Shown here piece after piece: positions 1,873 through 19,819 of a stretch of DNA of 19,819 bases; the stretch's first letter is position 1; each line of letters opens with the position of its first letter. The stretch spans positions 1 to 19,819 of IMG/VR virus record IMGVR_UViG_2675903413_000006; one strand, 5' to 3'. Source of the stretch: a virus. Lineage: Duplodnaviria; Heunggongvirae; Uroviricota; Caudoviricetes. The translations under genes were made by a program, and so were the position numbers. The notes beneath the pieces were generated by a model. That model saw only the letters and a list, made by a program, of their open reading frames with translations. It was not told where the DNA came from and made no database searches.

Positions 1873-2022
1873 GGGCCGATTCACTTTTATTGAATTTTTG
1901 TTACCGATAAAAGCTTGACATTTTAGTATCGAATGACCACCGTTATCATATTTGATTTCGGTGGTTAGCTTTCGACGTTGAAGAACTACTAGAGACTTTT
2001 ATCTAATATTAATGTTAAATTT

Positions 2023-3376: not shown

Positions 3377-3450
3377 ATGCGATCACCTTATTACTTCAAT
3401 AACTGTTCAGTCTCTGCATATCGACCCTGCAAGGTCGGTTAGTTTCTCCA

Positions 3451-3586: not shown

Positions 3587-3803
3587 AAGACTACACACAG
3601 CATAAAGTTGTGGTGCCGGGTGCCTCCCGGTGCCTGGCGAAGGTTGCACACCAGACGGGTGGGTATCCACAGAAGGTCGACTGTCAGCCTCAACCTTAAC
3701 CCGCGTGCGCTGAGCCGCATTCACCACAACGCTAAGGATTCTCTCTGGTTGAAAATACTTAGCAGTTATGTGCCTGCTTTTAGCCACATCAGGCGAGGTG
3801 GAC

Positions 3804-3856
3804 CTGGTTATTCCCCAACAACAAGGATTCGGTTAATCTGGTTATCCCCAACAACG
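3804..3856 (+). repeat. Imperfect direct repeat CTGGTTAT(T)CCCCAACAAC, two copies 34 bp apart, just upstream of the 3871 gene
   Basis: Copies at 3804-3823 and 3838-3856, ending 15 nt before the ATG at 3871. Confidence 0.6.
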
Positions 3857-3870
3857 CAAAAGGAAAAGAA

Positions 3871-4305
3871 ATGTCCGGTAATATCTATACGCTGTACAAA
3901 TCCCACTGTGAAAATGTTGGAAAGTATCGGGGCATTGAAATCAGTGGGGTAGTGTCATCAGTCGAAATAAGCAAAGTTGAATCAAGGGCAACATTACTTA
4001 CTCTTCTGGACCTTGTCTTACATGAGCACCGGAAGAAATTCGGCACTCCCTATAATCAGTTGAATGGGAAAAAAGCTCTGGTTCACCTTATTCTGATGAA
4101 GCATCACTGGATGCCAAAACAGATTAATGAGATGAAATTTGATGAACTTCTTCTTTCAATTCAGGATGAACTCACGCTTGATAAAATAAGCGTAACCGCC
4201 CAGAAATTTTTAGATTATCGAGACTGGAGATCACAAATTCATCACTTTGATGATTTTGACGAAAATGAATGGGATCCTAATTTGTCTGCACAATATCTAA
4301 AGTAA
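3871..4305 (+). CDS. Hypothetical phage early-region protein (144 aa)
   Basis: ORF with a purine-rich stretch (aaaaggaaaagaa) before the ATG; no recognisable motif. Confidence 0.5.
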   Translation: MSGNIYTLYKSHCENVGKYRGIEISGVVSSVEISKVESRATLLTLLDLVLHEHRKKFGTPYNQLNGKKALVHLILMKHHWMPKQINEMKFDELLLSIQDELTLDKISVTAQKFLDYRDWRSQIHHFDDFDENEWDPNLSAQYLK

Positions 4306-4483
4306 CATCCTGTGATAAAACCGTGATTTCCTGATCCAGTTTTTTTAAGGAGTCTATTGTTTCCTGTCGATAAGACAGCACTTCACGAAGCTGGTTTATA
4401 GCTGCCAGCTTCTTTGCCATCCACTCGTAAATTTCCTCATTTGTGTATCCGGGCGCGACGATTTTTGGTTCTGTTTTGTGCAT
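4277..4483 (-). CDS. Hypothetical small protein (68 aa), first gene of the leftward early transcript
   Basis: Strong RBS (GGAGG 7 nt upstream of the ATG on the minus strand); sits downstream of the putative OL-like GGTACAT sites. Its 3' end is convergent with the 3871 gene. Confidence 0.5.
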   Translation of the reverse strand: MHKTEPKIVAPGYTNEEIYEWMAKKLAAINQLREVLSYRQETIDSLKKLDQEITVLSQDVTLDIVQTN

Positions 4484-4542
4484 TTCACACCTCCTCAAGT
4501 TATCAGTTACTTGTTGATGGGGACCAGATTGTTAAAGAGCTA

Positions 4543-4566
4543 AGCGTCCTGTAGGGCGCTTTTTTG
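4543..4566 (+). terminator. Rho-independent terminator-like hairpin (7 bp stem with one G-U pair, 4-nt loop) followed by TTTTTG
   Basis: AGCGTCC-tgta-GGGCGCT then a T-run on the plus strand; there is no T-run on the minus-strand side. Confidence 0.5.
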
Positions 4567-4717
4567 TTGCTAACGAATCATCCTGGACTTCATATGCCCC
4601 AGGCGGCTACTTCGTGGGCGTCCTGTCTGTTTGTTGTTTCTCTTTGGTACATTATGTATCTCAAGGGTACATTGTCAAGTATAAAAAAACCTGCCGAAGC
4701 AGGTTCATAAACATTGA

Positions 4718-5392
4718 TTAGGCTTTGATTTTGTATCTTCTTGGTTTTCCTGAGAAAATCACAGTTCCAATTATAGAGCAATTACCGTTGATCTTAATGT
4801 AAGGCTCAGGCCAGTTTGGGTTTAACGCTTTGAGATAACGCTGTGTCCCATCTTCTATCAACCTTTTGAAGGTGGTTTCACCTGTATCGTGCATCAATGC
4901 AATAACGTCGTCACCGTGGCAGGCAGGTACTTCAGGATCGACAAAAATCATGTCTCCCGGGCGGTACTCATCAATCATTGAATCACCTATCACCCGCAAG
5001 ATATAAGTCATTTCCCCACAGGGTACAGGGCAGGGATACGTTTCTGCTGTGCTCAAATCAACCTCAGAATATCCAACTTCTTTCCATGCTCCGGCCTGTA
5101 CCCATGATATGACAGGGACTAATGTGATTTGTTTATTAGTGATTGAAACATCAGGTTTTTTTGTGATGTTCGTTGTCTGGTGTTCTTGATCGAGCCATCC
5201 GACAGGCAGGTCGAAACATTTTTCGATGTGTCGTGCCATGCTGTCACCGATATTTTTAGTAGCACCATCTCCCATAAACCTGCTGGTCTGGGTTGGCTCG
5301 CGATCAATCATAGTGGCAAAGGAAGAATTCCCGCCAACACCATCTCTCAGTTTTCTGGCGTTAGACCGCCGGATGTCATGGATTGTTTTCAT
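4718..5392 (-). CDS. cI: Phage repressor, CI-like, with a C-terminal S24 (LexA-like) autopeptidase domain
   Basis: C-terminal VIGDSM (Ser nucleophile) and TFKRL (Lys) are the S24 Ser/Lys dyad; divergent from a cro-like gene with an operator palindrome between them. Confidence 0.85.
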   Translation of the reverse strand: MKTIHDIRRSNARKLRDGVGGNSSFATMIDREPTQTSRFMGDGATKNIGDSMARHIEKCFDLPVGWLDQEHQTTNITKKPDVSITNKQITLVPVISWVQAGAWKEVGYSEVDLSTAETYPCPVPCGEMTYILRVIGDSMIDEYRPGDMIFVDPEVPACHGDDVIALMHDTGETTFKRLIEDGTQRYLKALNPNWPEPYIKINGNCSIIGTVIFSGKPRRYKIKA

Positions 5393-5407
5393 AACGAAAT
5401 TAAAACC

Positions 5408-5428
5408 CTTGTACCGTTAAGGTACAAG
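5408..5428. promoter_or_regulatory. Operator: perfect palindrome CTTGTACC-gttaa-GGTACAAG in the cI/cro divergent promoter region; a further GGTACA half-site lies at 5471-5476
   Basis: 21-bp perfect dyad 16 nt upstream of the cI start codon and about 55 nt upstream of cro. Confidence 0.7.
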
Positions 5429-5482
5429 TATCTTGAAGGTTCATTTCAATCATGTAATATGTATACCGGAGGTACATATTGT

Positions 5483-5683
5483 ATGAAAGCGTATTGGGAC
5501 TCTTTAACCAAAGAACAGCAGGGCGAGTTGGCCGGAAAAGTTGGCTCAACACCTGGCTACTTACGGCTGGTTTTCAATGGCTATAAAAAAGCCAGTTTTG
5601 TGCTGGCTAAAAAACTTGAGCAATGCACGTCAGGTGCAATTACGAAATCTGACTTAAGACCGGATATCTATCCGAAAGATTAG
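5483..5683 (+). CDS. cro: Cro-like HTH regulator
   Basis: 66-aa product; GGAGG RBS 11 nt upstream; divergent from cI. The 5' part of the longer 5180-5683 ORF overlaps cI antisense and is rejected. Confidence 0.7.
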   Translation: MKAYWDSLTKEQQGELAGKVGSTPGYLRLVFNGYKKASFVLAKKLEQCTSGAITKSDLRPDIYPKD

Positions 5684-5714
5684 CAGAACACTTTCAATTT
5701 TTAACCACAGAACG

Positions 5715-6284
5715 ATGAGGCTAATCGTGGGTAAGCATCACTGGAAAATAGAAAAACAGCCTGAGTGGTACGTGAAAGCTGTCAGAAAAACTATCGCGGC
5801 GTTGCCGGGTGGTTACGCTGAAGCGGCTGACTGGCTCGATGTAACAGAAAACGCTTTATTCAACCGCCTTCGTGCAGATGGCGATCAGATTTTCCCGCTG
5901 GGATGGGCAATGGTTTTACAGCGTGCTGGTGGCACTCACTTCATTGCTGATGCTGTGGCGCAGTCTGCAAATGGCGTCTTTGTGTCTCTTCCTGACGTCG
6001 AGGATGTGGACAACGCCGATATTAACCAGCGTCTGCTGGAAGTCATTGAACAGATCGGCAGTTATTCAAAACAGATTCGTTCAGCAATCGAAGACGGTGT
6101 AGTGGAACCGCATGAGAAGACAGCAATTAACGACGAGCTGTACCTATCAATTTCGAAGCTGCAGGAGCATGCAGCACTTGTCTACAAAATTTTTTGCATT
6201 TCAGAAAGTAATGACGCCCGCGAGTGTGCAGCTCCGGGCGTCGTGGCGTCGATTGCTTCTGGTTGTGGAGAAACTAACGCATGA
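5715..6284 (+). CDS. Phage regulatory protein CII-like (phage 186 CII / CP76 family-like)
   Basis: Sits in the cII position downstream of cro; residue pattern ([27 protein letters not shown]...HFIADAVAQ) parallels 186 CII as recalled from memory. The start may be the GTG at 5727. Confidence 0.5.
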
Positions 6285-6466
6285 ACAGTTTAACAACACA
6301 CTACCGTCGCTCGCAACTGATTGCGCTTCCTGTACCGGGTGGAAAAGCGAAGGTGGAGTATTGCTATGCAGTAAATGTACCAGGTGAACGGTGTTTACAG
6401 AAAAGCAGCAAGCGGGCTGCATCAGGTGAAGAGTGGTATCTGTCAGGGAATTACGTGGGGGCTTAA
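6281..6466 (+). CDS. Hypothetical small protein (61 aa), translationally coupled on both sides
   Basis: ATGA overlap with the upstream stop and TAATG overlap with the downstream start; no recognisable motif. Confidence 0.3.
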
Positions 6467-7119
6467 TGAGTAATAAATATTGCCAAGCGCTGGTGGAACT
6501 GCGGAACAAACCAGCCCATGAACTGAAGGAAGTGGGCGATCAGTGGCGCACGCCGGATAACATTTTCTGGGGAATTAACACCCTGTTTGGTCCGTTTGTT
6601 CTGGATCTGTTTACCGATGGTGATAACGCCAAATGTGCCGCGTATTACACGGCGGAAGACAACGCGCTGGCGCATGACTGGTCAGAACGTCTTGCGGAGC
6701 TTAAAGGTGCTGCCTTTGGTAATCCCCCATATAGCCGCGCCAGTCAGCATGAGGGGCAATACATCACCGGCATGCGTTACATCATGAAGCATGCCAGTGC
6801 CATGCGTGATAAAGGCGGGCGCTATGTTTTCCTGATCAAAGCTGCCACCAGCGAAGTGTGGTGGCCGGAAGATGCAGATCATATTGCTTTTATTCGCGGG
6901 CGTATTGGTTTTGAACTGCCTGCCTGGTTTATCCCGAAGGATGAGAAGCAGGTGCCGACAGACGCTTTCTTCGCTGGTGCTATTGCTGTTTTCGACAAGA
7001 CCTGGAAGGGACCGGCAATCAGCTACATCGGGCGCGATGAACTTGAGGCATGTGGTGAGGCCTTTCTGGCGCAGGTTCGCCAGCAGGCAGAAAAACTGGT
7101 CAGGGAGATGGCGGCATGA
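6466..7119 (+). CDS. Phage N6-adenine DNA methyltransferase (Dam-like)
   Basis: Catalytic NPPY motif (AFGNPPYSR) and typical phage Dam-family context in the nin-like region. Confidence 0.8.
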   Translation: MSNKYCQALVELRNKPAHELKEVGDQWRTPDNIFWGINTLFGPFVLDLFTDGDNAKCAAYYTAEDNALAHDWSERLAELKGAAFGNPPYSRASQHEGQYITGMRYIMKHASAMRDKGGRYVFLIKAATSEVWWPEDADHIAFIRGRIGFELPAWFIPKDEKQVPTDAFFAGAIAVFDKTWKGPAISYIGRDELEACGEAFLAQVRQQAEKLVREMAA

Positions 7120-7442
7120 CGACGTTAACTCAATGCCAGCAGCAGGTGCTGGATATGCTGATTTCTTATCAGAAAGAACGTGGCTTCCCGCCAACCAATC
7201 AGGAGGTGGCAACCATGCTGGGATACCGTTCAGTGAATGCAGCGGTGGAGCATCTTCGCGCACTGGAGAAAAAAGGCGTCATCACGATAAAGCGTGGCGT
7301 GGCCCGGGGCATCACGCTTCATACCGCGGTGAAGGACGACGACAGCGAGGCGGTCGGGATTATCCGCTCACTGCTTGCCGGTGAGGAAAACGCAAGGCTG
7401 CGTGCAACCCACTGGTTACATGAGAGGGGCCTGAAAGTATGA
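7116..7442 (+). CDS. LexA N-terminal DNA-binding-domain protein lacking the S24 peptidase domain
   Basis: 108 aa; MTTLTQCQQQVLDMLISYQKERGFPPTNQEVATMLGYRSVNAAVEHLRALEKKGVITIKRGVARGITL aligns by eye with the E. coli LexA N-terminal domain. No Ser/Lys peptidase region follows. Confidence 0.75.
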   Translation: MTTLTQCQQQVLDMLISYQKERGFPPTNQEVATMLGYRSVNAAVEHLRALEKKGVITIKRGVARGITLHTAVKDDDSEAVGIIRSLLAGEENARLRATHWLHERGLKV

Positions 7443-7834
7443 AGCTGATCCTGCCTTTTCCGCCCAGCGTGAACACGTACTGGCGACACCCCAACAAAGG
7501 GGCGTTTGCTGGTAAGAGCCTGATAAGCGCGGCGGGGCGAAAATTCCAGAGCGCGGCGTGCGCAGCAATAGTTGAGCAGTTACGTCGTCTGCCGAAACCA
7601 ACGTCGGCACCTGCTTCAGTGGAGATCGTGTTGTTTCCTCCGGATAACAGGATCCGCGATCTGGACAACTATAACAAGGCGCTGTTTGACGCCCTGACCC
7701 ACGCGGGGGTGTGGGAAGACGACAGTCAGGTGAAAAGAATGCTGGTGGAGTGGGGACCGGTTATCCCGGAGGGGAAGGTCGAGATCACTATCAGTAAGTA
7801 CGAAAAAGCGAGTTGCAAATTAGCAACTCGGTAA
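7439..7834 (+). CDS. rusA: Holliday junction resolvase RusA
   Basis: 131 aa; LPFPPSVNTYWRH...RDLDNYNKALFDALTHAGVWEDDSQV...VEITI matches the RusA signature. Confidence 0.85.
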   Translation: MKLILPFPPSVNTYWRHPNKGAFAGKSLISAAGRKFQSAACAAIVEQLRRLPKPTSAPASVEIVLFPPDNRIRDLDNYNKALFDALTHAGVWEDDSQVKRMLVEWGPVIPEGKVEITISKYEKASCKLATR

Positions 7835-7879
7835 CGGAATTGAGCAACACCCTAAATTTGGGTATTACCTCGTTAAAGA

Positions 7880-7899
7880 TACTGTATTTATGAACAGTG
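7880..7899. promoter_or_regulatory. LexA (SOS) box TACTGTATTTATGAACAGTG upstream of the KilA-N gene
   Basis: CTGT-N8-ACAG with an AT-rich spacer, matching the enterobacterial LexA consensus; about 100 bp upstream of the ATG at 7997. Confidence 0.7.
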
Positions 7900-7996
7900 T
7901 ATCCTTGATAACTATTAAAAATCGCAGTAAGTTCATCCTGCATCAACGAAAAGGGAGTGCAGTCCCGCTCGTGGATAAAAATTTGTGGAGAAACCA

Positions 7997-8812
7997 ATGA
8001 ATCAGTTGCTTGTAATTGATGGCGTTTCTGTGCGCCAGTACTTCGAATCTAACTACTGTCTTAACGACCTTCAGAAAGCAGCTCTTCTTGCCGCTGGTGA
8101 GAATCGCTCCTCCCGTTCGCTGGAAGTTCACGAGTTTATGCGTCGTCCTGAAACGAAGGCTCTTGTGGAATTATTGGAAGAAGAAACTACGGGAGATTCC
8201 CGTAGTATTCCTGTCATCACCATTCAGGGGCGCAATGGTGGGACGTATGTCTGTAAAGAGCTGGTCTATGCATATGCAATGTGGATCAGCCCGGCATTCA
8301 GCTTAAAAGTGATACGTACTTTTGATGCGCTTCATAATTCATCACCAGAAGAAACCACATCCGACAAAATTAAATCCGGGGTCATTCTGCTTGAATCAGC
8401 AGCAAAGACTCTAAATCTGTCAAACTCCTCGAAACTTGGTGCATACCAGAAATTATCAAAGGTAGCTGGTCTTCCTGAACTTATGCCGATCTATGCCATT
8501 GATGCACCTGCTGATGCGCCAGATGGTTCAAGCCGCCCTACGCTGTCGCTGAGTGCACTGCTGAAACAGTATGGTATCCGCCTTACGGCTAATCAGGCAT
8601 ATCACCAGATGGTGAAGCTGGGGATCGTCGAGCAGCGCGAACGATACAGCCGTACCTCGATTAACAACATCAAAAAATTCTGGTCGCTGACAGCGAAAGG
8701 CTGCATGTTCGGCAAGAACATCACCAGTCCTGCAAATCCGCGCGAGACGCAGCCGCACTTCTTCGAATCCCGATTCCCTGAGCTGTTAAAGCTGCTCAAT
8801 ACCGTTCATTGA
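7997..8812 (+). CDS. KilA-N domain protein, putative SOS-controlled antirepressor
   Basis: N-terminal KilA-N-like segment (GTYVCKELVYAYAMWISPAFSLKVIR); GGAG RBS; LexA box in its promoter region. Confidence 0.7.
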   Translation: MNQLLVIDGVSVRQYFESNYCLNDLQKAALLAAGENRSSRSLEVHEFMRRPETKALVELLEEETTGDSRSIPVITIQGRNGGTYVCKELVYAYAMWISPAFSLKVIRTFDALHNSSPEETTSDKIKSGVILLESAAKTLNLSNSSKLGAYQKLSKVAGLPELMPIYAIDAPADAPDGSSRPTLSLSALLKQYGIRLTANQAYHQMVKLGIVEQRERYSRTSINNIKKFWSLTAKGCMFGKNITSPANPRETQPHFFESRFPELLKLLNTVH

Positions 8813-8813
8813 G

Positions 8814-9809
8814 GTGACCGTGAGAGCACTACTGACCCCTGAAATTGCCCCGCGTATGGGGATCGTATTGTTCAGACCAGGTTCAGAGCTGATGCCCCTG
8901 TTTATGCAGGGGCGTGTCCTGCTGGAGCCTGAGCCGGAACGTTATTCATCTTTCGCCAGTGGTGCCGTTCCGGCGGCATCACAACCGCTGGCGGATGATC
9001 CTGCCGTTCGGGCCGTGTTCCGCAATGAGGCAGTAATCCGTCGTGCTGGTGGAGTGGAATGTCTTGAAAGCTGGTTACTTCGTGAAAAAGGCTGCCAGTG
9101 GCCCCATTCTGACTGGCACAGCGAGAACATGACCACAATGCGACACGCGCCGGGCGCAATCCGTCTGTGCTGGCACTGCGATAACCAGCTGCGCGATCAG
9201 TTCACGGAACGGCTGGAATCAATGGCAACGGATAACTGTGCCCGCTGGGTGTTATCTGTTGTGCGCCGTGATCTCGGTTTTGATGATAGTCACGTTGTAA
9301 CAATGCCGGAACTGTGCTGGTGGCTGGTTCGTAATGACCTGGCTGATGCCTTACCGGAAAGTGCAGCCCGTAAGGCACTGAGATTACCTAAGCCTGTTGT
9401 GCCGTCTGTCACCCGGGAGAGTGACCTTGTTCCTTCGGTTCCTGCCACCAGCATTATCCAGGATAAAGCGAAAAAGGTGCTGGCGCTGAAAGTGGATCCA
9501 GAGTCGCCGGAGTCTTTTATGTTACGCCCAAAACGTCGCCGCTGGGTTAATGAAAAGTACACGCGCTGGGTTAAGACGCAGCCGTGTGCATGTTGTGGAA
9601 AGCCTGCTGATGATCCCCACCACCTGATAGGCCACGGTCAGGGTGGAATGGGTACAAAAGCGCATGATCTCTTTGTGTTGCCTTTGTGCAGAAAGCATCA
9701 CGACGAGCTGCATGCGGATACCGTGGCATTTGAAGAGAAGTATGGCTCCCAGCTGGAGCTGATATTTCGTTTTATCGATCGTGCGCTGGCAATTGGCGTG
9801 CTGGCCTGA
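8814..9809 (+). CDS. DUF968-family phage protein (YdfU-like) with a Cys/His-rich C-terminus
   Basis: GTG start; C-terminal CACCGKPADDPHHL...CRKHHDELH; position immediately upstream of Q as in Qin-type prophages. Confidence 0.65.
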   Translation: MTVRALLTPEIAPRMGIVLFRPGSELMPLFMQGRVLLEPEPERYSSFASGAVPAASQPLADDPAVRAVFRNEAVIRRAGGVECLESWLLREKGCQWPHSDWHSENMTTMRHAPGAIRLCWHCDNQLRDQFTERLESMATDNCARWVLSVVRRDLGFDDSHVVTMPELCWWLVRNDLADALPESAARKALRLPKPVVPSVTRESDLVPSVPATSIIQDKAKKVLALKVDPESPESFMLRPKRRRWVNEKYTRWVKTQPCACCGKPADDPHHLIGHGQGGMGTKAHDLFVLPLCRKHHDELHADTVAFEEKYGSQLELIFRFIDRALAIGVLA

Positions 9810-9826
9810 TTTTGTGGAGAAGGTTG

Positions 9827-10177
9827 ATGCGTGATATGTATGAAGTATTGGACCGCTGGGGAGCATGGGCTGCAGCAGATAACAGTGGTGTGGACTGGCA
9901 GCCTGTTGCTGCAGGGTTTAAAGGTTTACTACCTCATGGAAAGAAAACACGCCAACAATGCGATGATGATGAAGGAATCATGATTGACAGCTGTGTTGCG
10001 CGATTGCGGAAATATAAGCCAGAAGAATATGAACTGATCATTGCTCACTTTGTTATCGGTATTTCACTCCGTTCAATAGCAAAGAAACGGAAATGCTCTG
10101 ACGGGTCAATCAGAAAACAACTTCAAGCAGCAATAGGAGTGATTGAAGGTATTTTGTTGATTATTAAGCCCCTGTAG
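9827..10177 (+). CDS. Late-gene antitermination protein Q (QuuD-like small Q family)
   Basis: MRDMYEVLDRWGAWAA...AAGFKGL...CDDD...CSDGSIRKQLQAAIGVIEGIL matches the QuuD/YbcQ-like pattern; RBS GGAGAAGG. Confidence 0.8.
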   Translation: MRDMYEVLDRWGAWAAADNSGVDWQPVAAGFKGLLPHGKKTRQQCDDDEGIMIDSCVARLRKYKPEEYELIIAHFVIGISLRSIAKKRKCSDGSIRKQLQAAIGVIEGILLIIKPL

Positions 10178-10180
10178 GGC

Positions 10181-10765
10181 TTAATAATTCATATGAATTC
10201 TGTTTCCGAGATAATATAATCCAAAGAAAGTTGATACTAAGAGTTGCCAAACGAGGAAAGTAAATACAACAGTATAAACCATTAAAACAATACTGTTTTG
10301 ATAGACATTGATTAATGGTGAAAATATAGCATTAAGTATTATTATAACAATGCTTAATGCTGTTAAAAAAGAGAATAGCATGCAAAGAAATAATCGTCTG
10401 GTCAGAACCTCCTCTGAATTTACTACTTTTCCATTTTCTTTTGTTACTTTTATTTCAATAGAGGCATTTCTTTCATTGCTAATCAATGGTAAATCAATCT
10501 CAGCTCTATTGAAAGTTGCTATGGCGGCCAGAGCGGCAATATAAAACCCTGGTAGGTTAGAGATAAATGAAACGATTGATTTAATGAAACCATTGTCATC
10601 AAATAAATCTTTGACAGGGATTTTTAATAGAGTGAAAAGTACTGCTGTGATAGAAGTAAGTAGAATTGGTGCTACCCAATCATATGCAGCTTTGCCGCTA
10701 ATACCTTTAATAAAAAGATATCCAAACGGCTTGCCTAGATGAGAGAAAACTGAAAGTATTGGCAT
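10181..10765 (-). CDS. Hypothetical integral membrane protein (194 aa, about four predicted TM helices); second gene of the AT-rich cargo operon
   Basis: Four hydrophobic segments with a ~40-aa hydrophilic loop between the second and third; GAGG RBS 6 nt upstream of the ATG; 7-nt intergenic gap to the upstream gene; AT-rich. Confidence 0.6.
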   Translation of the reverse strand: MPILSVFSHLGKPFGYLFIKGISGKAAYDWVAPILLTSITAVLFTLLKIPVKDLFDDNGFIKSIVSFISNLPGFYIAALAAIATFNRAEIDLPLISNERNASIEIKVTKENGKVVNSEEVLTRRLFLCMLFSFLTALSIVIIILNAIFSPLINVYQNSIVLMVYTVVFTFLVWQLLVSTFFGLYYLGNRIHMNY

Positions 10766-10772
10766 AATAACC

Positions 10773-11795
10773 TCACATCAAATCTATCATTTTCACAACA
10801 AACTCTAGTTCAATTTTAACATATGAATCCTTCAGGCGCGAATTAAAGTTATCGATAATGCTTTTCTTAATAAATGTTTTTTCTAAATTATTAAGATTGA
10901 TGTTTGAGGTTTTGAAATCAACCTGCCTTGGTTTATTTGTTTCAGGATCTTGGAATTTAACCTTTAATTTATCATAACCACCATTCATTTTTTTATTGAA
11001 ATGAGATGCTACATTTTTAATCCATCCAATAACATTGTCACCATGATTTGGAAGTAATTTTAATGTACTTTCAGTCGGAATGTAAGGTGAATTAACATCA
11101 GGAGCATTAATTGTTCCGAATTGATCCTTGACTAATATGACATCTGATAATCCTTTTTGGCTTATTTTATTAAAAAGCTCCTTGTCTAACATTCCTGTAA
11201 ATTCAAATATTGGTTTGTATCGTATTTTTACTTCTTTTTTTGATGTTGCAGAAATAACGTTAGTTGGATGTTTTGCGGTAAATAAGTCTTCATTGTCTTT
11301 CGCCACTTCAAAGAGAATTTTGTCTAAAAAACTATTTAACCGGGCCGTAGATACACCTGGGGTAGATGTACAAATCATATCATAGGTTCTTTTATTTCCA
11401 TTTAATGATATGACAACATAGGTAGAAACTTCATAGCCTTCACCTTGTTCATATTTTGGTTGGATTTCAACGCGTTCATTAGTATTTATATTTTTTACAA
11501 CGGTAGTACTTCCATTTTTATCAACACTATTAATAAGAAGGACAATATGCGTGGGTGAGTTATCTGGAAGTAAAGGATAAAGTTGTACATCTTGGAGAGT
11601 AACTACAATATTCCCAGAATCATATGAATGAACGAGTCCCTTTTGTTTAACAATCAATGGGGCAAGCATGTACATTTCCGGAACAGGACATATACACTGG
11701 GCTTTTACCTCTTGTGTTGCCTTGGTTCTAAACTTTGTGTCAATGGTCAGACTATGATGAGTAACGAGTCTTTCGCTAGCATTTAATTTTGCCAT
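10773..11795 (-). CDS. Hypothetical soluble protein (340 aa); first gene of the AT-rich cargo operon
   Basis: Long AT-rich ORF antisense to the phage late genes; no catalytic motif recognised (no CD-NTase GS...DxD, no YADD, no Walker A, no TIR/SIR2 signature seen). Confidence 0.6.
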   Translation of the reverse strand: MAKLNASERLVTHHSLTIDTKFRTKATQEVKAQCICPVPEMYMLAPLIVKQKGLVHSYDSGNIVVTLQDVQLYPLLPDNSPTHIVLLINSVDKNGSTTVVKNINTNERVEIQPKYEQGEGYEVSTYVVISLNGNKRTYDMICTSTPGVSTARLNSFLDKILFEVAKDNEDLFTAKHPTNVISATSKKEVKIRYKPIFEFTGMLDKELFNKISQKGLSDVILVKDQFGTINAPDVNSPYIPTESTLKLLPNHGDNVIGWIKNVASHFNKKMNGGYDKLKVKFQDPETNKPRQVDFKTSNINLNNLEKTFIKKSIIDNFNSRLKDSYVKIELEFVVKMIDLM

Positions 11796-11906
11796 GAAAT
11801 CATCCGATTATGATTTTTCGATTTATTTGTTAATCTTACAAAAACGCTAACGCGTACGCAAAAATTATTGTATCGTGTTAAGAGTGGTTACTTCGCCACA
11901 CAGCTT

Positions 11907-11935
11907 AAACCCGCCGTCGAGCGGGTTTTGTCGTT
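11907..11935 (+). terminator. tR'-like intrinsic terminator (hairpin AAACCCGC...GCGGGTTT then a T-rich tract) upstream of the lysis cassette
   Basis: GC-rich stem followed by TTTTGTCGTTT, about 150 bp upstream of the holin gene; fits the lambdoid pR'-tR' arrangement. Confidence 0.6.
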
Positions 11936-12080
11936 TCTGGGGCTGGGGATTCGTTGGTCCTGGTCTATTCCGCAGTTATCCATTGGTTCGGCTTCTTTGA
12001 CGTTTCCGCTTCTAATTTGCTGTACATGATGTTCCCTCAATTTGCACCTGCTGTATCAGCGAGGTGAGAGATAACTACAA

Positions 12081-12407
12081 ATGCCTCATAACCCAAATAC
12101 CTGGCTGGAGTTGGTCCAGAGCTGGTGGCGTGGAGACACACCGCTGGGCGCAGTGATTATGTCGATTGTTATGGCTGGTTTACGTATTGCCTATTTTGGC
12201 GGTGGTGGCGGCTGGAAGCGAAAAACACTCGAAATTCTACTCTGTGGCGCTCTGACGCTGACTTTTGCATCCGCTCTTGAGTATGTCGGATGGCCTAAAT
12301 CGCTTTCTGTTGCCATTGGTGGTGGGGTGGGGCTGATCGGTGTCGATGCTATTCGTGGGGCTGCAATGAGAGTAATCGGTAATAAGTTTGGTGGCTCTAA
12401 GGAGTAA
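12081..12407 (+). CDS. Holin (lambda S-like)
   Basis: 108 aa with hydrophobic helices and a charged C-terminus, immediately upstream of the endolysin. Confidence 0.8.
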   Translation: MPHNPNTWLELVQSWWRGDTPLGAVIMSIVMAGLRIAYFGGGGGWKRKTLEILLCGALTLTFASALEYVGWPKSLSVAIGGGVGLIGVDAIRGAAMRVIGNKFGGSKE

Positions 12408-12410
12408 TTT

Positions 12411-12887
12411 ATGCAGGTACTAAATTCCCAGCGTAAAGCTTTCCTCGATATGGTGGCATGGTCAGAAGGAACGGATAACGGGCGACAACCGACACGTAAC
12501 CACGGTTATGATATTATTGTTGGTGGTGAACTATTCACTGATTACTCCGATCACCCTCGCAAACTTGTCACGCTAAACCCCAAACTCAAATCAACAGCTG
12601 CAGGCCGTTATCAACTTCTTTCACGCTGGTGGGATGCTTACCGCAAGCAGCTTGGGCTGAAAGACTTCTCTCCAAAAAGCCAGGATGCTGTGGCATTGCA
12701 GCAGATTAAAGAGCGTGGCGCTTTACCGATGATTGATCGCGGCGATATTCGTCAGGCTATCGATCGTTGCAGCAATATCTGGGCTTCACTGCCGGGCGCT
12801 GGTTACGGTCAATATGAACATAAAATCGGTGACCTGATTGCCCGATTCAAAGAGGCTGGCGGGGTGGTAAATGAAGTTGAGCTATAA
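12411..12887 (+). CDS. Endolysin, lambda R-type lytic transglycosylase
   Basis: Near-identical by recall to lambda R across the protein (QRKAFLDMVAWSEGTDNGRQPTRNHGYDIIVGGELFTDYSDHPRKLVTLNPKLKST...). Confidence 0.9.
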   Translation: MQVLNSQRKAFLDMVAWSEGTDNGRQPTRNHGYDIIVGGELFTDYSDHPRKLVTLNPKLKSTAAGRYQLLSRWWDAYRKQLGLKDFSPKSQDAVALQQIKERGALPMIDRGDIRQAIDRCSNIWASLPGAGYGQYEHKIGDLIARFKEAGGVVNEVEL

Positions 12888-13305
12888 GCTGGTTATCGCA
12901 GCATTCTTCTCTACTGTCATCGGTTCTTTCATCTGGTCTGCTAACCACTACTACAGCAAATATCAGCACGAAAAGAAACGTGCTGATGAGGCTGTACAAA
13001 ATGCTGAATCCGCAACCGCTATTACCAATAATGTCCTGCAATCACTGCAAATCGTCAATACAGTTCTGGAGGCTAACCAGCATGCAAAACAGCAGATCGC
13101 ACTGGAGTCACAGAGAACCCAGGCTGATATCAAAGTGGCTGTTGCGGATGATGATTGTGCTTTACGCCTTGTGCCTGCTGCCGCTGCTGACCGGTTGCGG
13201 AAATACGCGGACAGTTTACGTAACAGTACCTCCAATTCCGCTTCCAGCTACTCTGACTTTGGAAACGCCAGTACCGCACATACCCGATACTCTGACCTAT
13301 GGTGA
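12871..13305 (+). CDS. Rz-like i-spanin
   Basis: N-terminal TM segment followed by a coiled, charged region; start overlaps the R stop. Confidence 0.7.
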   Translation: MKLSYKLVIAAFFSTVIGSFIWSANHYYSKYQHEKKRADEAVQNAESATAITNNVLQSLQIVNTVLEANQHAKQQIALESQRTQADIKVAVADDDCALRLVPAAAADRLRKYADSLRNSTSNSASSYSDFGNASTAHTRYSDLW

Positions 13306-13396
13306 CAGTCTGGAGTTGAATGTGAGTCTGTTGTCAGCGTTGGAACAGTGTAATCTTGATAAAGCGACAATAAAAAATATCGACGCTAACAAATAA
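13148..13396 (+). CDS. Rz1-like o-spanin lipoprotein, embedded in the +1 frame of Rz
   Basis: MMIVLYALCLLPLLTGC signal with lipobox LTGC, then a Pro-rich segment; lies within and extends beyond Rz. Confidence 0.65.
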   Translation: MMIVLYALCLLPLLTGCGNTRTVYVTVPPIPLPATLTLETPVPHIPDTLTYGDSLELNVSLLSALEQCNLDKATIKNIDANK

Positions 13397-13461
13397 AAGG
13401 ACCTGTAATTTCATAGAGATGATTCCATGTTAATATTGCTTCTTTAACTGGAGGCATATTG

Positions 13462-13947
13462 ATGGATTGGAATATGTGGTCTGCTATTGGGGCTTGTGGT
13501 TCGGCTATCGCGTCTTTATGGGCGTTGTGTTATGCACGCAAGGCGTTAAACACATGGAATAGACAAGAGCAATTTAAAGTAAAGTTAGAGTTTAAACGAG
13601 CTTTACTTGAGCTGGAGGATGCCTTTGAGGCAATGCCCGATAATTGGAATTCCACACAATACAGAATAGCTAGAACAAGAGTTGAACAGCAGTATAATGC
13701 TGTTGTTCACCGAGTTGATGATGCAGCACAGCTATATTTTAAGAAAGAAAACCTTAAATCAGCATACCAGAATGCAGTGAGAGCATGGGTTTTATGTGAA
13801 GGGGGGATTAAAGATAAAAGTATACATGCTGAATGGAAACAACTCAGGACTGAATATAGTCAATATATTATGACTGGTGGAAATAAAAAGTGCTACTTAT
13901 CAAAAATAGAAAAAATATATTCTAGAATTGTCGTGTTCATAGATTGA
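13462..13947 (+). CDS. Hypothetical AT-rich moron protein (161 aa) with an N-terminal hydrophobic helix
   Basis: GGAGG RBS 7 nt upstream; AT-rich; followed by a perfect palindrome ATGAGAGAG-acaagta-CTCTCTCAT (13955-13979). Confidence 0.5.
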   Translation: MDWNMWSAIGACGSAIASLWALCYARKALNTWNRQEQFKVKLEFKRALLELEDAFEAMPDNWNSTQYRIARTRVEQQYNAVVHRVDDAAQLYFKKENLKSAYQNAVRAWVLCEGGIKDKSIHAEWKQLRTEYSQYIMTGGNKKCYLSKIEKIYSRIVVFID

Positions 13948-13993
13948 TTTTTATATGAGAGAGACAAGTACTCTCTCATTATGGATATTTTAC

Positions 13994-14344
13994 ATGCCAC
14001 CACGAACCCCAAAAGCCTGCCGCGTTCGCGGCTGCCGCAATACCACTACTGATCCGTCAGGCTATTGCGAAAACCACAAAAGCGAGGGCTGGAAGCAATA
14101 CAAGCCAGGACAATCCCGTCATCAGCGCGGTTATGGTTCGAAATGGGATGCTATCCGTGAACGTGTGCTGAAGCGTGACAAAGGCCTGTGTCAGTTATGT
14201 CTGCGTGCTGGTGTGGTGCGTGAGGCGAAAACCGTTGACCACATCATCCCTAAAGCGCATGGCGGCACAGATGCCGACAGTAATCTGCAGAGCCTGTGCT
14301 GGCCGTGTCATAAGGCGAAGACGGCCCGTGAACGGCTGAAGTGA
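13994..14344 (+). CDS. HNH endonuclease (terminase-associated)
   Basis: CxxC...HK...CxxCH arrangement with DHIIPKAHGG...NLQSLCWPCHKAKT; located immediately upstream of terS. Confidence 0.8.
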   Translation: MPPRTPKACRVRGCRNTTTDPSGYCENHKSEGWKQYKPGQSRHQRGYGSKWDAIRERVLKRDKGLCQLCLRAGVVREAKTVDHIIPKAHGGTDADSNLQSLCWPCHKAKTARERLK

Positions 14345-14469
14345 GAACCAGTTCCCACTGCCAGAGGGGAGGGGCGGGTCAAATCCCTGTGACCTGACGT
14401 CTTCCGGACTGCCCGCCCCATCGTTTTTTTATACCCGCGAAAAATGAAATTTAACCAGGAGTGCCGCAT

Positions 14470-14964
14470 ATGGCTGGAACGGCGGGGCGTTCCGGGCGTC
14501 GCCCCAAGCCAACGGCGCGCAAGGCGCTGGCCGGAAACCCCGGCAAGCGAGCCCTGAATAAAGATGAACCTGTTTTTACGCCCATCAAAGGTGTTGAGCC
14601 ACCGGAGTGGTTCGCAGAAGAAAATCTCCCTCTCGCCACGATCATGTGGCAACTGACAACCAAAGAACTCTGCGGTCAGGGCCTGTTGTGCGTGACTGAC
14701 CTCGCGGTGCTTGAGCGGTGGTGCGTGGCCTATGAGTTCTGGCGACGTGCCGTGAAAAATATTGCCATACAGGGCAACACCATCACCGGTGCAATGGGCG
14801 GCAGGGTCAAAAATCCGGAGCTGACCGCCAAAAAAGAACAGGAGTCCGAGATGAGCAGCACGGGGGCAATGCTCGGACTCGACCCCAGCAGCCGCCAGCG
14901 TCTGATTGGCCTGGCGGGGAAGAAGAAAGCCACTAACCCGTTTCTGAAAATCATCGAATCATGA
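14470..14964 (+). CDS. Terminase small subunit, P27 family
   Basis: [14 protein letters not shown]... N-terminus and size typical of P27-family TerS; AGGAG RBS; ATGA coupling to terL. Confidence 0.75.
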
Positions 14965-15767
14965 GCCGGAAATCTTACCCCAACGTAAATGCTGCAAATC
15001 AGTATGCCCGGGATGTCGTGCGCGGAAAGATTGTTGCCTGCCAGTTTGTGATTCAGGCCTGCCAGCGCCATCTTGATGACCTGATGGCGGAAAAAAGTAA
15101 GTCGTTTCGTTACCGCTTCGACAAGGACCTGGCTGAACGGGCCGCGAAATTTATTCAGCTGTTGCCGCACACCAAGGGGGAGTGGGCATTCAAACGGATG
15201 CCCATCACGCTGGAGCCGTGGCAGCTATTTGTGATCTGCTGTGCGTTTGGCTGGGTCAATAAAGGCACCCGGTTGCGCCGCTTCCGGGAGGTGTACACCG
15301 AAATCCCCCGTAAGAACGGCAAATCAGCAATCTCTGCCGGTGTTGCCCTGTATTGTTTTGCCTGTGATAACGAGTTTGGCGCGGAAGTGTATTCCGGTGC
15401 CACGACAGAGAAACAGGCGTGGGAAGTCTTTCGCCCGGCGCGACTGATGTGTAAACGCACACCCATGCTGACGGAAGCGTTCGGGATTGAGGTTAACGCC
15501 TCAAACATGAACCGTCCGGAGGATGGCGCGCGGTTTGAACCGCTGATCGGCAACCCAGGTGATGGTTCATCACCCCACTGTGCCGTGGTGGATGAATATC
15601 ACGAGCACGCCACCGATGCGCTTTACACCACGATGCTTACCGGGATGGGGGCGCGACGTCAGCCACTGATGTGGGCCATCACCACCGCCGGGTACAACAT
15701 TGAGGGACCGTGCTACGACAAGCGGCGGGAAGTTCTCGAGATGCTCAACGGTTCGGTATGTTTCTGA
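14961..15767 (+). pseudogene. Terminase large subunit, N-terminal ATPase fragment (about 265 aa)
   Basis: Walker A-like PRKNGKS and Walker B-like AVVDEYHE are present; the ORF stops after ~268 codons where full-length TerL is about 550 aa, and the following DNA encodes a tail protein. Confidence 0.8.
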
Positions 15768-15768
15768 T

Positions 15769-16557
15769 GCGATGAAAGTGGTGGATTCTGCCGTATCGGA
15801 TGCCGCCAGGCTGTTGCAGGGGGATATCTCGGTACTTCTGCCGCCGCCATCGTCAGGCAAAAATTTCGTTGAGCAGGTGCAGAAAATGTGGCGTACCGGG
15901 AAACGCCTTTATGGTAACGCCAGCGACCTGGTCACCATGATCAAAACGCTTTCCGGTGTCAGCCTCGGCAGCGATCTGCAACCGCGCGGCGTCTGGAAAA
16001 CGGACAGTAAAACCACCGCCACGGCTACGCAGCAGCGTAACGTAGTTGCCAGCACCCTTCGTACGACCGCAATCAGCGAAGCGGCGTATGCCGTCACCCG
16101 ATTGCCTGCGCCAACAACTTCCGCGGTGATGCAGAATGCCGCAGTGGGGCAGGCAACAACACCTGCGCAGAGCACTGGCTGGCCTTCCGTCACGCATCCG
16201 GCACTGAACAATGCACCGGCGGTGAAAAACACGGTTGACCTGCCGACGTGGGAAGAACTGACTGACATTCGCGACACACTGAATACGGCAATTGATAAGG
16301 AGTTGTCCCGTACAACCAGTGATGCGCTGTTTCTGGCGCTGCGCCGGGTGAAAGCAGATCTGAATGCGGATATCAACACGCGCCTTGAACAGTCTGCACG
16401 GATCATTCAGCGCACACCGGATGAGGTTTTACCCGCGCTGGTGCTGGCGGCGACCTGGTTTGATAACGCGGCGCGTGACGCGGACATTATCCGGCGTAAT
16501 GCCATTACGCATCCCGGCTTTGTGCCGGTGATCCCTCTGAAGGTGCCAGTGCAATGA
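15769..16557 (+). pseudogene. C-terminal fragment of a Mu gpN-like DNA circulation/tail protein, fused at a deletion junction to truncated terL
   Basis: ORF directly upstream of, and overlapping by ATGA with, the gpP-like gene, which is the gpN position in Mu-like tail modules. The identification is by position more than by sequence. Confidence 0.5.
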
Positions 16558-17633
16558 ACGATAACGTCACGCTACGGGTAAATGGCCGGGAGTGGAATGG
16601 CTGGACATCGGTGCGCATCGGTGCCGGTGTTGAACGACTGGCGCGGGATTTCAGTGTGGAGATCACCCGCCAGTGGCCGGGAAATGAGGGTATTACCACG
16701 CTTCAGCCGCGCATTAAAAACGGTTCAAAAGTGGAAGTGCTGATTGGTGATGAGCTGGTGATCACCGGCTGGGTGGAGGCGACGCCCGTTCGTTACGATG
16801 CCCGTTCGGTCAGCACCGGTATTGCCGGACGTAGTCTGACCGCAGACCTGATTGACTGTGCAGCCGAACCGACACAGTTTAACGGACGATCGCTGGTACA
16901 GATTGCGCAGGCGCTTGCTGCGCCTTTCGGCATTGAGGTGGTGAACAGCGGTGCGCCGTCGGGTGTTATTCCTGATGTCCAGCCTGATCACGGTGAAACG
17001 GTGATTGAGGTGATCAACAAAATACTCGGTCAGCAGCAGGCGCTGGCTTACGACGACCCGCACGGCAGGCTGGTGATTGGCGGTATTGGCTCAACGCGGG
17101 CACATACCGCGCTGGTACTCGGGGAAAACATCCTTTCCTGCGATACGGAGAAGAGTATCCGGGAGCGGTTTTCTGTTTACCAGGTGGCGGGGCAGCGTGC
17201 CGGAAACGACGATGATTTCGGTGAGGCCACCACCACCGCGCTGCGGGCCCGCACAGAGGACGCATTTATTGCCCGTTACCGTCCGATGTATATCAGGCAG
17301 ACAGGGCAGGCTACGGGGGCAGGCTGTATTGCCCGTGCTGACTTTGAAGCCCGACAACGGGCGGCGCGAACGGACGAAACCACCTATGTGGTGCAGGGCT
17401 GGCGACAGGGTAACGGTACGCTGTGGCAGCCCAACCAGCGGGTGATTGTCTTCGATCCGGTCTGTGGGTTTGACAATACCGAACTGCTTGTCTCGGAGGT
17501 CACGTTTACTCAGGACCAGAACGGCACTCTGACGGAAATCCGTGTCGGCCCGCCTGATGCTTATCTGCCTGAACCCGAAGACCCCGGCGCGCGGAAAAAG
17601 AAAAAAGCCAGAGTACAGGAGGACCCGTTCTGA
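16554..17633 (+). CDS. Baseplate hub protein, Mu gpP / P2 gpD-like (phage late control D family)
   Basis: 359 aa; size, position and sequence character fit the gpP/gpD family. Confidence 0.75.
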   Translation: MNDNVTLRVNGREWNGWTSVRIGAGVERLARDFSVEITRQWPGNEGITTLQPRIKNGSKVEVLIGDELVITGWVEATPVRYDARSVSTGIAGRSLTADLIDCAAEPTQFNGRSLVQIAQALAAPFGIEVVNSGAPSGVIPDVQPDHGETVIEVINKILGQQQALAYDDPHGRLVIGGIGSTRAHTALVLGENILSCDTEKSIRERFSVYQVAGQRAGNDDDFGEATTTALRARTEDAFIARYRPMYIRQTGQATGAGCIARADFEARQRAARTDETTYVVQGWRQGNGTLWQPNQRVIVFDPVCGFDNTELLVSEVTFTQDQNGTLTEIRVGPPDAYLPEPEDPGARKKKKARVQEDPF

Positions 17634-18181
17634 TGAGGACGATTGAAGCCATGCAGCGACAACTTCTCGGTCTGATTGGGCGGGCAGTGGTGAAAAGCAT
17701 CAGTGCCGCCACGAAATGTCAGACCGTGGATGTGTCCCTGATTGCCGGTGAACCCAAAGCAGGGGTTGAACATCTTGAACCCTACGGTTTTACCGCAAGG
17801 GCAAACAGCGGTGCGGAAGCGGTGGTGTTGTTTCCGGATGGCGACCGTTCTCATGCGGTGGTTGTTACGGTGTCGGACCGGCGCTACCGCCTGAAAGGGC
17901 TGCAGACGGGTGAGGTGGCTGTCTATGACGATCAGGGGCAGTCCGTGACGCTGACCCGGGAGGGGATCGTGGTGGACGGTGCAGGTAAAACGATCACGTT
18001 TCGCAATGCGCCCAGAGCACGTTTTGAAATGGACCTGGAAGTGACCGGACAGGTGAAAGACCTGTGCGACTCCGGCGGCACCACCATGTCAGCGATGCGG
18101 CTTGCCTATAACGGGCATCGTCACAGAGAGAACGGTCAGGGCAGTAACACCGACAAACCTGATAAAGCGATGGAGGCATGA
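17633..18181 (+). CDS. Baseplate spike / assembly protein, Mu gp45-like (gpV-like)
   Basis: 182 aa; overlapping-stop coupling with the flanking baseplate genes; fits the gp45/V family by position and sequence character. Confidence 0.75.
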   Translation: MRTIEAMQRQLLGLIGRAVVKSISAATKCQTVDVSLIAGEPKAGVEHLEPYGFTARANSGAEAVVLFPDGDRSHAVVVTVSDRRYRLKGLQTGEVAVYDDQGQSVTLTREGIVVDGAGKTITFRNAPRARFEMDLEVTGQVKDLCDSGGTTMSAMRLAYNGHRHRENGQGSNTDKPDKAMEA

Positions 18182-18606
18182 TGGAACTGTGGCTGACGGT
18201 GAACGGTAAACGCACCTGCGCCAGCGCACCGCTGGATCCGCTGACCCGCGCCGTGGTGATTTCCCTGTTTACCTGGCGGCGGGCGGAGCCTGATGACAAC
18301 GCCGACGTCCCGATGGGATGGTGGGGGGATACCTGGCCTGCGGTACAGAATGACCGTTACGGCTCCCGGCTGTGGCTGCTTCAGCGCAGCAAACTGACCA
18401 ATCAGCTGGTGCAGACGGTAAGGGGATATATCCGCGAATGCCTGCAATGGATGACTGATGACGGCGTGGTGTCCCGTATTGATCTGGATATCCGCCGCAC
18501 CGGGATTAATGAACTGGGTAACAGTATCACTCTCTGGCGTCGTGACGGACCGGTAATGATTTCTTTTGATGATCTGTGGAGTGCGATAACGCATGGCGGA
18601 CAGTGA
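18178..18606 (+). CDS. Mu gp46-like baseplate protein (Phage_GP46 family)
   Basis: 142 aa with the MGWWGD...GSRLWLL motif typical of the GP46 family. Confidence 0.75.
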   Translation: MMELWLTVNGKRTCASAPLDPLTRAVVISLFTWRRAEPDDNADVPMGWWGDTWPAVQNDRYGSRLWLLQRSKLTNQLVQTVRGYIRECLQWMTDDGVVSRIDLDIRRTGINELGNSITLWRRDGPVMISFDDLWSAITHGGQ

Positions 18607-18811
18607 ATTTCAGCGCCCGACGCTGGCAGAAAATATCAGTATGCTCCGTAACGATTTATTCGCCAGGCTGGACGTCAGCGACACGCTCCGGCGCATGGAT
18701 GAAGACGTGCGGGCAAAGGTGTATGCGGCGGCGCTGCATACGGTTTACGGTTACATCGATTACGTCAAATTGGCGGGCATAATGCCTGGCGTGACAGCAA
18801 CGGACAGTTGA
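18593..18811 (+). pseudogene. Baseplate J-like protein (Mu gp47 family), N-terminal ~70-aa fragment truncated at a deletion junction
   Basis: ...VYAAALHTVYGYIDYVKLAGIMPGVTAT matches the N-terminal region of baseplate J proteins; the ORF ends after 72 codons and the downstream DNA encodes an autotransporter beta-domain. Confidence 0.7.
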
Positions 18812-19601
18812 GAACGACCTCGCATCGCTACGTCTCGCAGTTAGGGGGCGATCTGTTAACCGGTGGTTTTACCGATAGTGACAGTTGGCGTTTGGGAGTG
18901 ATGGCTGGTTATGCCCGCGACTACAACTTAACTCATTCCAGCGTGTCGGATTATCGTTCGAAAGGGAGTGTCAGAGGCTATAGCGCAGGGCTGTATGCCA
19001 CCTGGTTTGCCGATGACATCAGTAAAAAAGGCGCATACATTGACTCCTGGGCGCAATATAGCTGGTTTAAAAACTCGGTGAAAGGGGATGAATTAGCCTA
19101 TGAATCCTATAGCGCGAAAGGTGCAACCGTCTCGCTGGAAGCGGGTTACGGTTTTGCCCTGAATAAATCCTTTGGTCTGGAAGCGGCGAAATATACGTGG
19201 ATCTTCCAGCCACAGGCACAGGCTATCTGGATGGGCGTCGATCATAATGCGCACACGGAAGCCAATGGCTCACGTATTGAGAATGACGCAAATAACAACA
19301 TCCAGACCCGACTCGGCTTCCGCACCTTTATTCGTACTCAGGAGAAAAACAGCGGTCCGCACGGTGACGACTTTGAACCTTTTGTTGAAATGAACTGGAT
19401 CCATAACAGTAAAGATTTTGCTGTCTCAATGAACGGTGTGAAAGTCGAACAAGATGGGGCGAGTAATTTGGGGGAAATTAAACTTGGCGTAAATGGCAAC
19501 CTGAATCCAGCGGCCAGCGTCTGGGGAATGTGGGCGTGCAGCTGGGTGATAATGGCTACAATGACACCGCAGTGATGGTGGGCCTGAAATATAAGTTCTG
19601 A
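18808..19601 (+). pseudogene. Autotransporter outer-membrane beta-barrel domain remnant, 5'-truncated, with a 1-nt frameshift near 19525-19530
   Basis: Beta-domain-like sequence (GYSAGLYATWF...SLEAGYGF...). Reading frame 0 from ~19503 gives the canonical C-terminus ...NVGVQLGDNGYNDTAVMVGLKYKF*, while the upstream frame ends early; the passenger domain is absent. Confidence 0.75.
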
Positions 19602-19613
19602 TCCCGCCGTTAG

Positions 19614-19645
19614 CTAAAAAACCGCGTCGTATTCATCGACGCGGT
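19614..19645 (-). terminator. Intrinsic terminator for the minus-strand small gene (hairpin ACCGCGTCG...CGACGCGGT followed by a T-run on the minus strand)
   Basis: On the plus strand: AAAAAACCGCGTCGtattcatCGACGCGGT; 9-bp stem, 7-nt loop. Confidence 0.7.
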
Positions 19646-19657
19646 ACATATGAAATA

Positions 19658-19819
19658 TTATTTTTTGCCGATAGCACGCATGGTGTCATCAATTGCCGTG
19701 ATCAACAGCATTTGCGGGTCTTTAGCGCAAACCTGATTCAGTTTTTCTACCACTTTGGCGCTCAGTTCCGGAGATTGCTCAATTTTTAAATCACGGCTGG
19801 CAACGCTGGCATTACCCAT
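19658..19819 (-). CDS. Hypothetical small protein (53 aa), start codon at the window edge
   Basis: Reverse-strand ORF MGNASVASRDLKIEQSPELSAKVVEKLNQVCAKDPQMLLITAIDDTMRAIGKK* followed by a terminator; likely a host gene flanking the prophage remnant. Confidence 0.5.
   Translation of the reverse strand: MGNASVASRDLKIEQSPELSAKVVEKLNQVCAKDPQMLLITAIDDTMRAIGKK

Follow-up and report, generated by a model that had tools for sequence, protein, structure and literature searches.

The right-hand end of the prophage analysed here is, in all likelihood, an inert deletion scar in the chromosome of one lineage of Escherichia coli, where the loss of about 15.7 kb fused the baseplate J gene of an e14-family prophage to the host autotransporter pseudogene ycgH. 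The window, meaning the whole 19,819-nt stretch of IMG/VR record IMGVR_UViG_2675903413_000006 that was analysed, runs through the prophage, across this join, and into the host gene ymgD (Table 1). The position of the junction, the identities of its two parents, the frameshift allele that the ycgH remnant has in common with K-12, and the recurrence of the junction in independent assemblies were each observed directly.

Table 1. Features of the prophage remnant, its deletion scars and the adjoining host sequence, in window coordinates.
Feature	Position	Strand	Basis
Third scar, early region, shared 'GTGA'	6384..6387		Comparison with 82.0311
Second scar, shared 'GGTA': terL (codon ~266) fused to the middle of the DNA-circularisation protein gene	15755..15758		Comparison with 82.0311
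Mu GpP/gp44-like baseplate protein	16554-17633	+	ORF listing, Pfam
Mu Gp45-like protein	17633-18181	+	ORF listing, Pfam
GP46	18178-18606	+	ORF listing, Pfam
5' remnant of prophage baseplate J/gp47 gene (codons 1-56 plus 2 nt)	18593..18762	+	Identical to annotated J genes of UID2309220013 and TUM9812
Chimeric 72-codon ORF	18593..18811	+	56 J codons and 16 ycgH codons out of frame
Deletion junction, 2-bp microhomology 'TA' common to both parents	18761..18762		Three-way alignment (window, J genes, K-12 ycgH)
3' 841 bp of host autotransporter pseudogene ycgH, beta-barrel domain only	18761..19601	+	100% identical to K-12 ycgH
GGGG run with -1 frameshift (GGGGG in intact alleles)	19523..19526	+	Comparison with E2865 and other alleles
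Terminator-like hairpin between convergent ycgH and ymgD, T-tail serving ymgD	19621..19645	-	Hairpin and T-tail
ymgD, host gene, 3' half, running off the window end	19658..19819	-	ORF listing, K-12 identity

The window contains an E. coli e14-family prophage with an intE and xisE integration module, inserted at icd. In megablast searches of 5,426 complete E. coli genomes, positions 1-15758 were 100% identical to a prophage of strain 82.0311, except for one 1.6-kb gap, while positions 15759-18762 were approximately 97% identical to the stretch from the DNA-circularisation gene to baseplate J in prophages of the same family in other strains. The counterpart in 82.0311 carries intE and xisE, and is bordered by icd on one side and an icdC fragment on the other. 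This integration module and position, together with a gene order collinear with that of other prophages lying between icd and icdC, therefore identify the element as a member of the e14 family. The baseplate module upstream of the join is likewise collinear, and lies entirely on the + strand. Beyond J, the 82.0311 prophage continues into ymfQ, tail-fibre genes, pinE and cargo. In the window, codon 56 of J instead passes straight into ycgH, leaving no room for the right-end genes or for the icdC duplication containing attR, the site needed for excision.

Mu-like tail and baseplate genes (Mu Gp45, GP46 and GpP/gp44) could suggest that the prophage end is a genuine insertion boundary, left by a Mu-like or other transposing phage entering ycgH. 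Yet the element encodes a tyrosine integrase, intE, with xisE, and its intact form resides in icd with the icdC duplication. Furthermore, the cut at codon 56 of 352 falls in J, a gene internal to the prophage, and the head module has an HK97/P27-type terminase, rather than being linked to a Mu transposase. A Mu-type insertion into ycgH is refuted by these intact relatives, and we regard a genuine insertion boundary as hardly credible.

The cargo of the prophage also merits description. Between the Q antiterminator and the holin, PADLOC identified a candidate PDC-M53 defence cassette of two genes (340 aa and 194 aa) at 10181-11795 on the - strand, with E-values of 2e-32 for M53A and 2e-54 for M53B; neither protein matched a Pfam family above the cut-off. 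The cassette is also present in 82.0311, and different cargo occupies this slot in other e14-family prophages. On the attL side, in the interval between icd and intE, positions 1-1872 of the + strand encode a 623-aa DUF2357 protein (Pfam E=2e-9) with no PADLOC match. In 82.0311 this gene is preceded by one for an 848-aa hypothetical protein, and the two may constitute an McrBC-like restriction pair.

The join itself was located through the two parental sequences. Identity to J genes extends to 18762, and 100% identity to K-12 ycgH begins at 18761. At the crossover, J genes read ...ATCGATTA followed by TCTGGC, K-12 ycgH reads ...TTTGGCTA followed by CGTCAAATTGG, and the window reads ATCGATTACGTCAAATTGG. 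The first-pass annotation of this DNA had noticed a J-like ORF ending at about 18811 after 72 codons, and had placed the boundary there, with an autotransporter beta-domain immediately following. The ORF is as described, but the true DNA join lies 50 nt upstream of the proposed boundary. There is no insertion sequence (IS) element, att core or site, or target-site duplication at 18761-18762, the dinucleotide 'TA' being all that the two parents have in common. The joining would therefore appear to have been mediated by this 2-bp microhomology, and to have been neither IS-mediated nor site-specific. Nevertheless, the mechanism is weakly determined, because a 2-bp match is near the level expected by chance.

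On the prophage side of the junction, the 72-codon ORF opens with 170 nt that match, without a difference, the start of genes which other E. coli prophages carry under the annotation 'baseplate J/gp47 family protein'. Codons 57-72 (...VKLAGIMPGVTATDS*) are ycgH read in the wrong frame, with the TGA at 18809-18811 being a chance stop. No Pfam family was detected in the 72-aa product, including the Baseplate_J domain (PF04865). In an intact 352-aa homologue this domain spans residues 69-317, wholly past the codon-56 breakpoint, and hence the stub retains none of it. The stub is assignable as a J gene fragment by nucleotide identity only.

On the host side, positions 18761-19819 match the K-12 ycgH-ymgD region with 100% identity over 1,059 bp in megablast. 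The orthology with ycgH is evident from both this identity and the synteny, as the gene is convergent with ymgD, and the contig of GCA_907172445.1 continues downstream through ymgD and ymgG to minE, minD and minC. The ycgH frame is open from 18763 to 19575, and within it a 255-codon ORF is called at 18808-19575; the true stop, at 19599-19601, lies in the shifted frame. Translation from 18763 gives 270 residues, which match the autotransporter beta-domain PF03797 (E=2e-38) over profile positions 6-252 of 255. They also match TIGR01414 (E=8e-63) and the C-termini of the AIDA-I, MisL and ECSE_1600 models, identifying the remnant as the translocator beta-barrel of a type Va (AIDA-I-type) autotransporter. 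From 18763 the frame reads RQIGGHNAWRDSNGQLRTTSHRYVSQLGGD..., which corresponds to residue 495 onward of the intact 773-aa coding sequence of strain E2865 (98% identity). In that protein the AC_1 domain occupies residues 295-407, the Pertactin domain 297-422, and the beta-domain 492-751. Hence the breakpoint falls three residues inside the Pfam beta-domain.

The remainder of the autotransporter is missing. The proposal that the beta-domain follows the J-like ORF without a passenger was borne out by the PF03797 match, and by the lack of any blastn or tblastn match anywhere in the window to the 5' part and passenger of K-12 ycgH, leaving neither passenger nor autochaperone. The signal sequence of K-12 ycgH (MKLKKLPGFSLGLIALAVGNAYA) lies in the deleted part, and was not matched in the window. 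The in-frame product ends ...VWGMWACSWVIMATMTPQ*, without the terminal beta-strand and its final aromatic residue, as reaching KYKF* requires the +1 frame or a fifth G.

These losses bear on whether the 255-codon beta-barrel ORF might be translated and retain some role. It begins at a TTG that runs into the stop of the chimeric ORF (TTGA), in a 4-nt overlap resembling translational coupling, and gene callers report both ORFs. Yet its N-terminus, MRTTSHRYVSQLGG, is not a signal peptide; the terminal strand and C-terminal aromatic have been lost to the frameshift; and no promoter-like site was found upstream on the + strand. A functional remnant is consequently very improbable, and the 4-nt overlap is coincidental. 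Rather, nothing functional is predicted at the join, which unites a J stub devoid of its domain with a ycgH stub devoid of signal peptide, passenger, autochaperone and terminal strand.

The frameshift in the ycgH remnant had been attributed to the loss of a single base from a G-run near 19525-19530, altering the last ~25 codons, with the other frame giving the canonical ending. The one-base shortage is real, although the run lies slightly to the left of that position (Table 1). The alternative ending is also correct: a fifth G restores VWGNVGVQLGDNGYNDTAVMVGLKYKF*, with its stop at 19601, identical to the C-terminus of the intact E2865 coding sequence. The count, though, is 24 residues (750-773 in the intact E2865 protein), the terminal ...KYKF strand among them. 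An 81-nt probe matched 4,884 E. coli records, of which 1,556 had the 4-G allele exactly and 1,433 the 5-G allele. All six of the independently assembled contigs of the lineage that reach the run have four Gs. The 2,648-bp ycgH of K-12 is doubly disrupted, by the identical -1 shift and by an internal stop located 289 bp upstream of the point at which the window's copy is cut. The possibility that the frameshift is a sequencing error, which would have undermined the original description, is excluded by the recurrence of the 4-G allele in these records, in the six lineage assemblies, and in K-12. Hence it is an old, inherited allele. As its remnant matches the K-12 allele with 100% identity, ycgH had very probably become a pseudogene before the deletion took place, and we infer that the frameshift is the older of the two changes.

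The gene has decayed in other ways elsewhere in the species, with IS2 insertion, truncation and IS1-mediated deletion each found in other strains. It has been listed as 'pseudogene - autotransporter' (PMC4447067). The literature found on ycgH mentions it as a K-12 pseudogene or a neutral integration site, and contained no account of the present deletion.

The junction was sought in both reference collections and public assemblies. An exact search of GTDB species representatives with the 41-nt junction found no occurrence, and three junction-spanning queries did not detect the J/ycgH junction in any of the 5,426 complete E. coli genomes. Nevertheless, 22 public contigs encode exactly this 72-aa chimeric protein; they come from independent NCBI assemblies, SRA-run (Logan) assemblies and ENA metagenomes, and the exact 41-nt junction was present in all ten of these that were fetched. 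One, from GCA_907172445.1, has a single nucleotide difference from the window over 11,227 nt, and its downstream sequence retains the native order of ymgD, ymgG, minE, minD, minC, ycgJ ... hlyE, umuD and umuC. In this contig ymgD itself has a nonsense change, GAA to TAA, at approximately 11241, which is 15 nt past the right end of the window, splitting it into ORFs of 51 aa and 53 aa; at least four further lineage contigs have the same split in their gene calls.

It could be argued that the junction is an assembly chimera, or the frameshift a homopolymer sequencing error, or both, as homopolymers are error-prone and the join is missing from every complete genome searched. But an identical junction in contigs of separate NCBI, SRA-run and ENA origin, and a G-run of the same length in every lineage contig that reaches it, in K-12, and across the wider set of records, make such artefacts vanishingly unlikely. 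The junction is a true, rare, lineage-specific structural variant. With the junction in none of the complete genomes searched, relocation of the missing host block to another part of the genome is improbable rather than formally impossible.

The extent of the deletion was estimated from two reference strains, one of which, 82.0311, has a second prophage adjoining icdC; with 82.0311 and K-12 as references, the loss would total about 15.7 kb. In 82.0311, the 5,891 bp from the J breakpoint to the end of icdC comprise the rest of J, ymfQ, tail-fibre and assembly genes, pinE, a gene for a GIY-YIG protein, an mcrA fragment, and icdC with attR. The gene order in K-12 is icdC, iraM, ycgX, bluR, bluF, ycgZ, ymgA, ariR, ymgC, pdeG, ymgF, ycgH, ymgD; the 9,830 bp between icdC and the ycgH breakpoint encompass these genes from iraM to ymgF, as well as ymgK (between iraM and ycgX), and 1,807 bp of ycgH. 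The K-12 stretch used as a query, from the end of bluF through ycgZ, ymgA, ariR, ymgC, pdeG and ymgF to the 5' part of ycgH, had no match in the window. For iraM, ycgX, bluR and most of bluF, absence follows from the unbroken join at 18761-18762, which leaves no room for them. The suggestion that the distal tail genes, attR and a 5' portion of a host autotransporter gene disappeared in a deletion is thus supported by the 82.0311 prophage on the left and the native ycgH-ymgD arrangement on the right. In addition to what had been claimed, approximately 9.8 kb of host DNA between attR and ycgH would also have been lost.

In the compared K-12 stretch, the block from ycgZ through ymgA, ariR and ymgC to pdeG (positions 382-3444) was at least 80% present in 3,887 of the 5,426 complete E. 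coli genomes, and without a match in 365. The segment adjoining the attR of e14 is variable across the species.

This variation is relevant to whether the DNA was lost stepwise, with an earlier event, such as one mediated by an IS, taking attR and the host block, and a later small deletion removing the IS and trimming J and ycgH. Strain TUM9812 offers a parallel, in which an independent, IS1A-mediated event fused the same type of prophage, after mcrA, to a 971-bp 3' fragment of ycgH; another strain has IS2 within ycgH; and with the ycgZ-to-pdeG block at least 80% present in just 3,887 genomes, parts of it may have been missing earlier. Against this, neither an IS remnant nor an intermediate genotype was found, and the J/ycgH junction is never apart from the second, terL scar on contigs long enough for both. 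The present evidence fits either a single-step or a multi-step history, but one event is the more parsimonious, and we infer a single deletion, judging the stepwise route unlikely.

The prophage bears two further scars of similar character, each at a 4-bp microhomology (Table 1). At the terL junction, 11,617 bp are missing relative to 82.0311, corresponding to the portal, protease, capsid, connectors, sheath, tube and tape measure. This junction occurs in none of the 5,426 complete E. coli genomes, and wherever a contig is long enough to contain both, it accompanies the J/ycgH junction. In the early region, a further 1,595 bp present in 82.0311 are missing; they hold a DUF4222 gene and an HTH/replication-like gene, together with the greater part of a PerC-family gene. 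That all three junctions are clean, with microhomology and no IS element, points to RecA-independent illegitimate recombination as the mechanism of decay.

A coherent explanation can therefore be proposed. The e14-family prophage integrated at icd would have lost everything from codon 57 of J onwards, comprising the rest of that gene, ymfQ, the tail-fibre and assembly genes, the pin invertase, the right-end cargo, and attR with icdC. The adjacent host segment, spanning iraM, ycgX, bluR, bluF, ycgZ, ymgA, ariR, ymgC, pdeG, ymgF and the first 1,807 bp of ycgH, would have been lost with it. The two ends would have been joined at the TA microhomology through RecA-independent illegitimate recombination. 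The ycgH stub carries the old K-12-type -1 frameshift, probably inherited from before the deletion. The loss of attR, combined with the scars in the early region and terL, would leave a locked-in, non-infective remnant, which cannot excise because attR is gone.

Similar elements place this structure in context. The e14 of K-12, a cryptic prophage with terminase, portal and J fragments, belongs to the same family, with the same integration site, gene order and orthologues (intE, xisE, ymfK, ymfT, ymfL, ymfR, J and ymfQ), and has decayed in a similar style, a portal fragment being fused to a J fragment. The deletions and their endpoints differ, however: K-12 keeps the right end (pinE, mcrA and icdC/attR), whereas the present remnant has lost both this and approximately 9.8 kb of host DNA. 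The cargo differs also, with the DUF2357 protein and the candidate PDC-M53 cassette found in the remnant. The retained 841 bp of ycgH are identical in nucleotide sequence to those of K-12, including the G-run frameshift, and the convergent neighbour ymgD is also shared, but the window is without the first 1,807 bp of the K-12 gene, which contain the signal peptide, passenger, autochaperone and internal stop. Compared with AIDA-I-type autotransporters in general, the remnant barrel matches the PF03797 and TIGR01414 models and the C-termini of the AIDA-I, MisL and ECSE_1600 models, yet it is a barrel only, with its last strand frameshifted, and it misses all full-length family cut-offs by a wide margin.

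The mcrA-IS1A-ycgH' fusion of TUM9812 is an independent loss of attR, the iraM-to-ymgF block and the 5' part of ycgH, beside a prophage of the same family, and likewise reduces ycgH to its beta-domain with the 4-G allele. Its IS1A deletion lies at 35347-37851 of the compared stretch. In contrast to the present junction it is IS1-mediated, and keeps the tail module through to mcrA, with 971 bp of ycgH remaining against 841 bp in the window.

Two independent events by different mechanisms, in the present lineage and in TUM9812, together with the absence of most of the ycgZ-to-pdeG block from ~28% of complete genomes, raise the idea that the interval from the right end of e14 to ycgH is a recurrent deletion hotspot, that its loss is selected in certain lineages, and that the scar marks adaptive regulatory loss instead of neutral decay. 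We consider this quite doubtful. Were it correct, such losses would deprive the cell of the blue-light and cold biofilm regulators BluF, BluR, YcgZ, YmgA and AriR, as well as of the phosphodiesterase PdeG and of IraM, an RpoS anti-adaptor.

Rather, the scar is the product of ordinary prophage and pseudogene decay, and represents nothing new in kind. For annotation, it means that the 72-codon and 255-codon ORFs should be treated as pseudogene fragments, not proteins, and the prophage as a locked-in remnant lacking attR. The three microhomology scars are handy PCR or k-mer markers of a rare E. coli lineage without the regulatory block of bluF to ariR, pdeG and iraM. Hence this prophage provides a further example of microhomology-mediated decay, through a deletion that would have extended beyond the element into the flanking DNA of its host.
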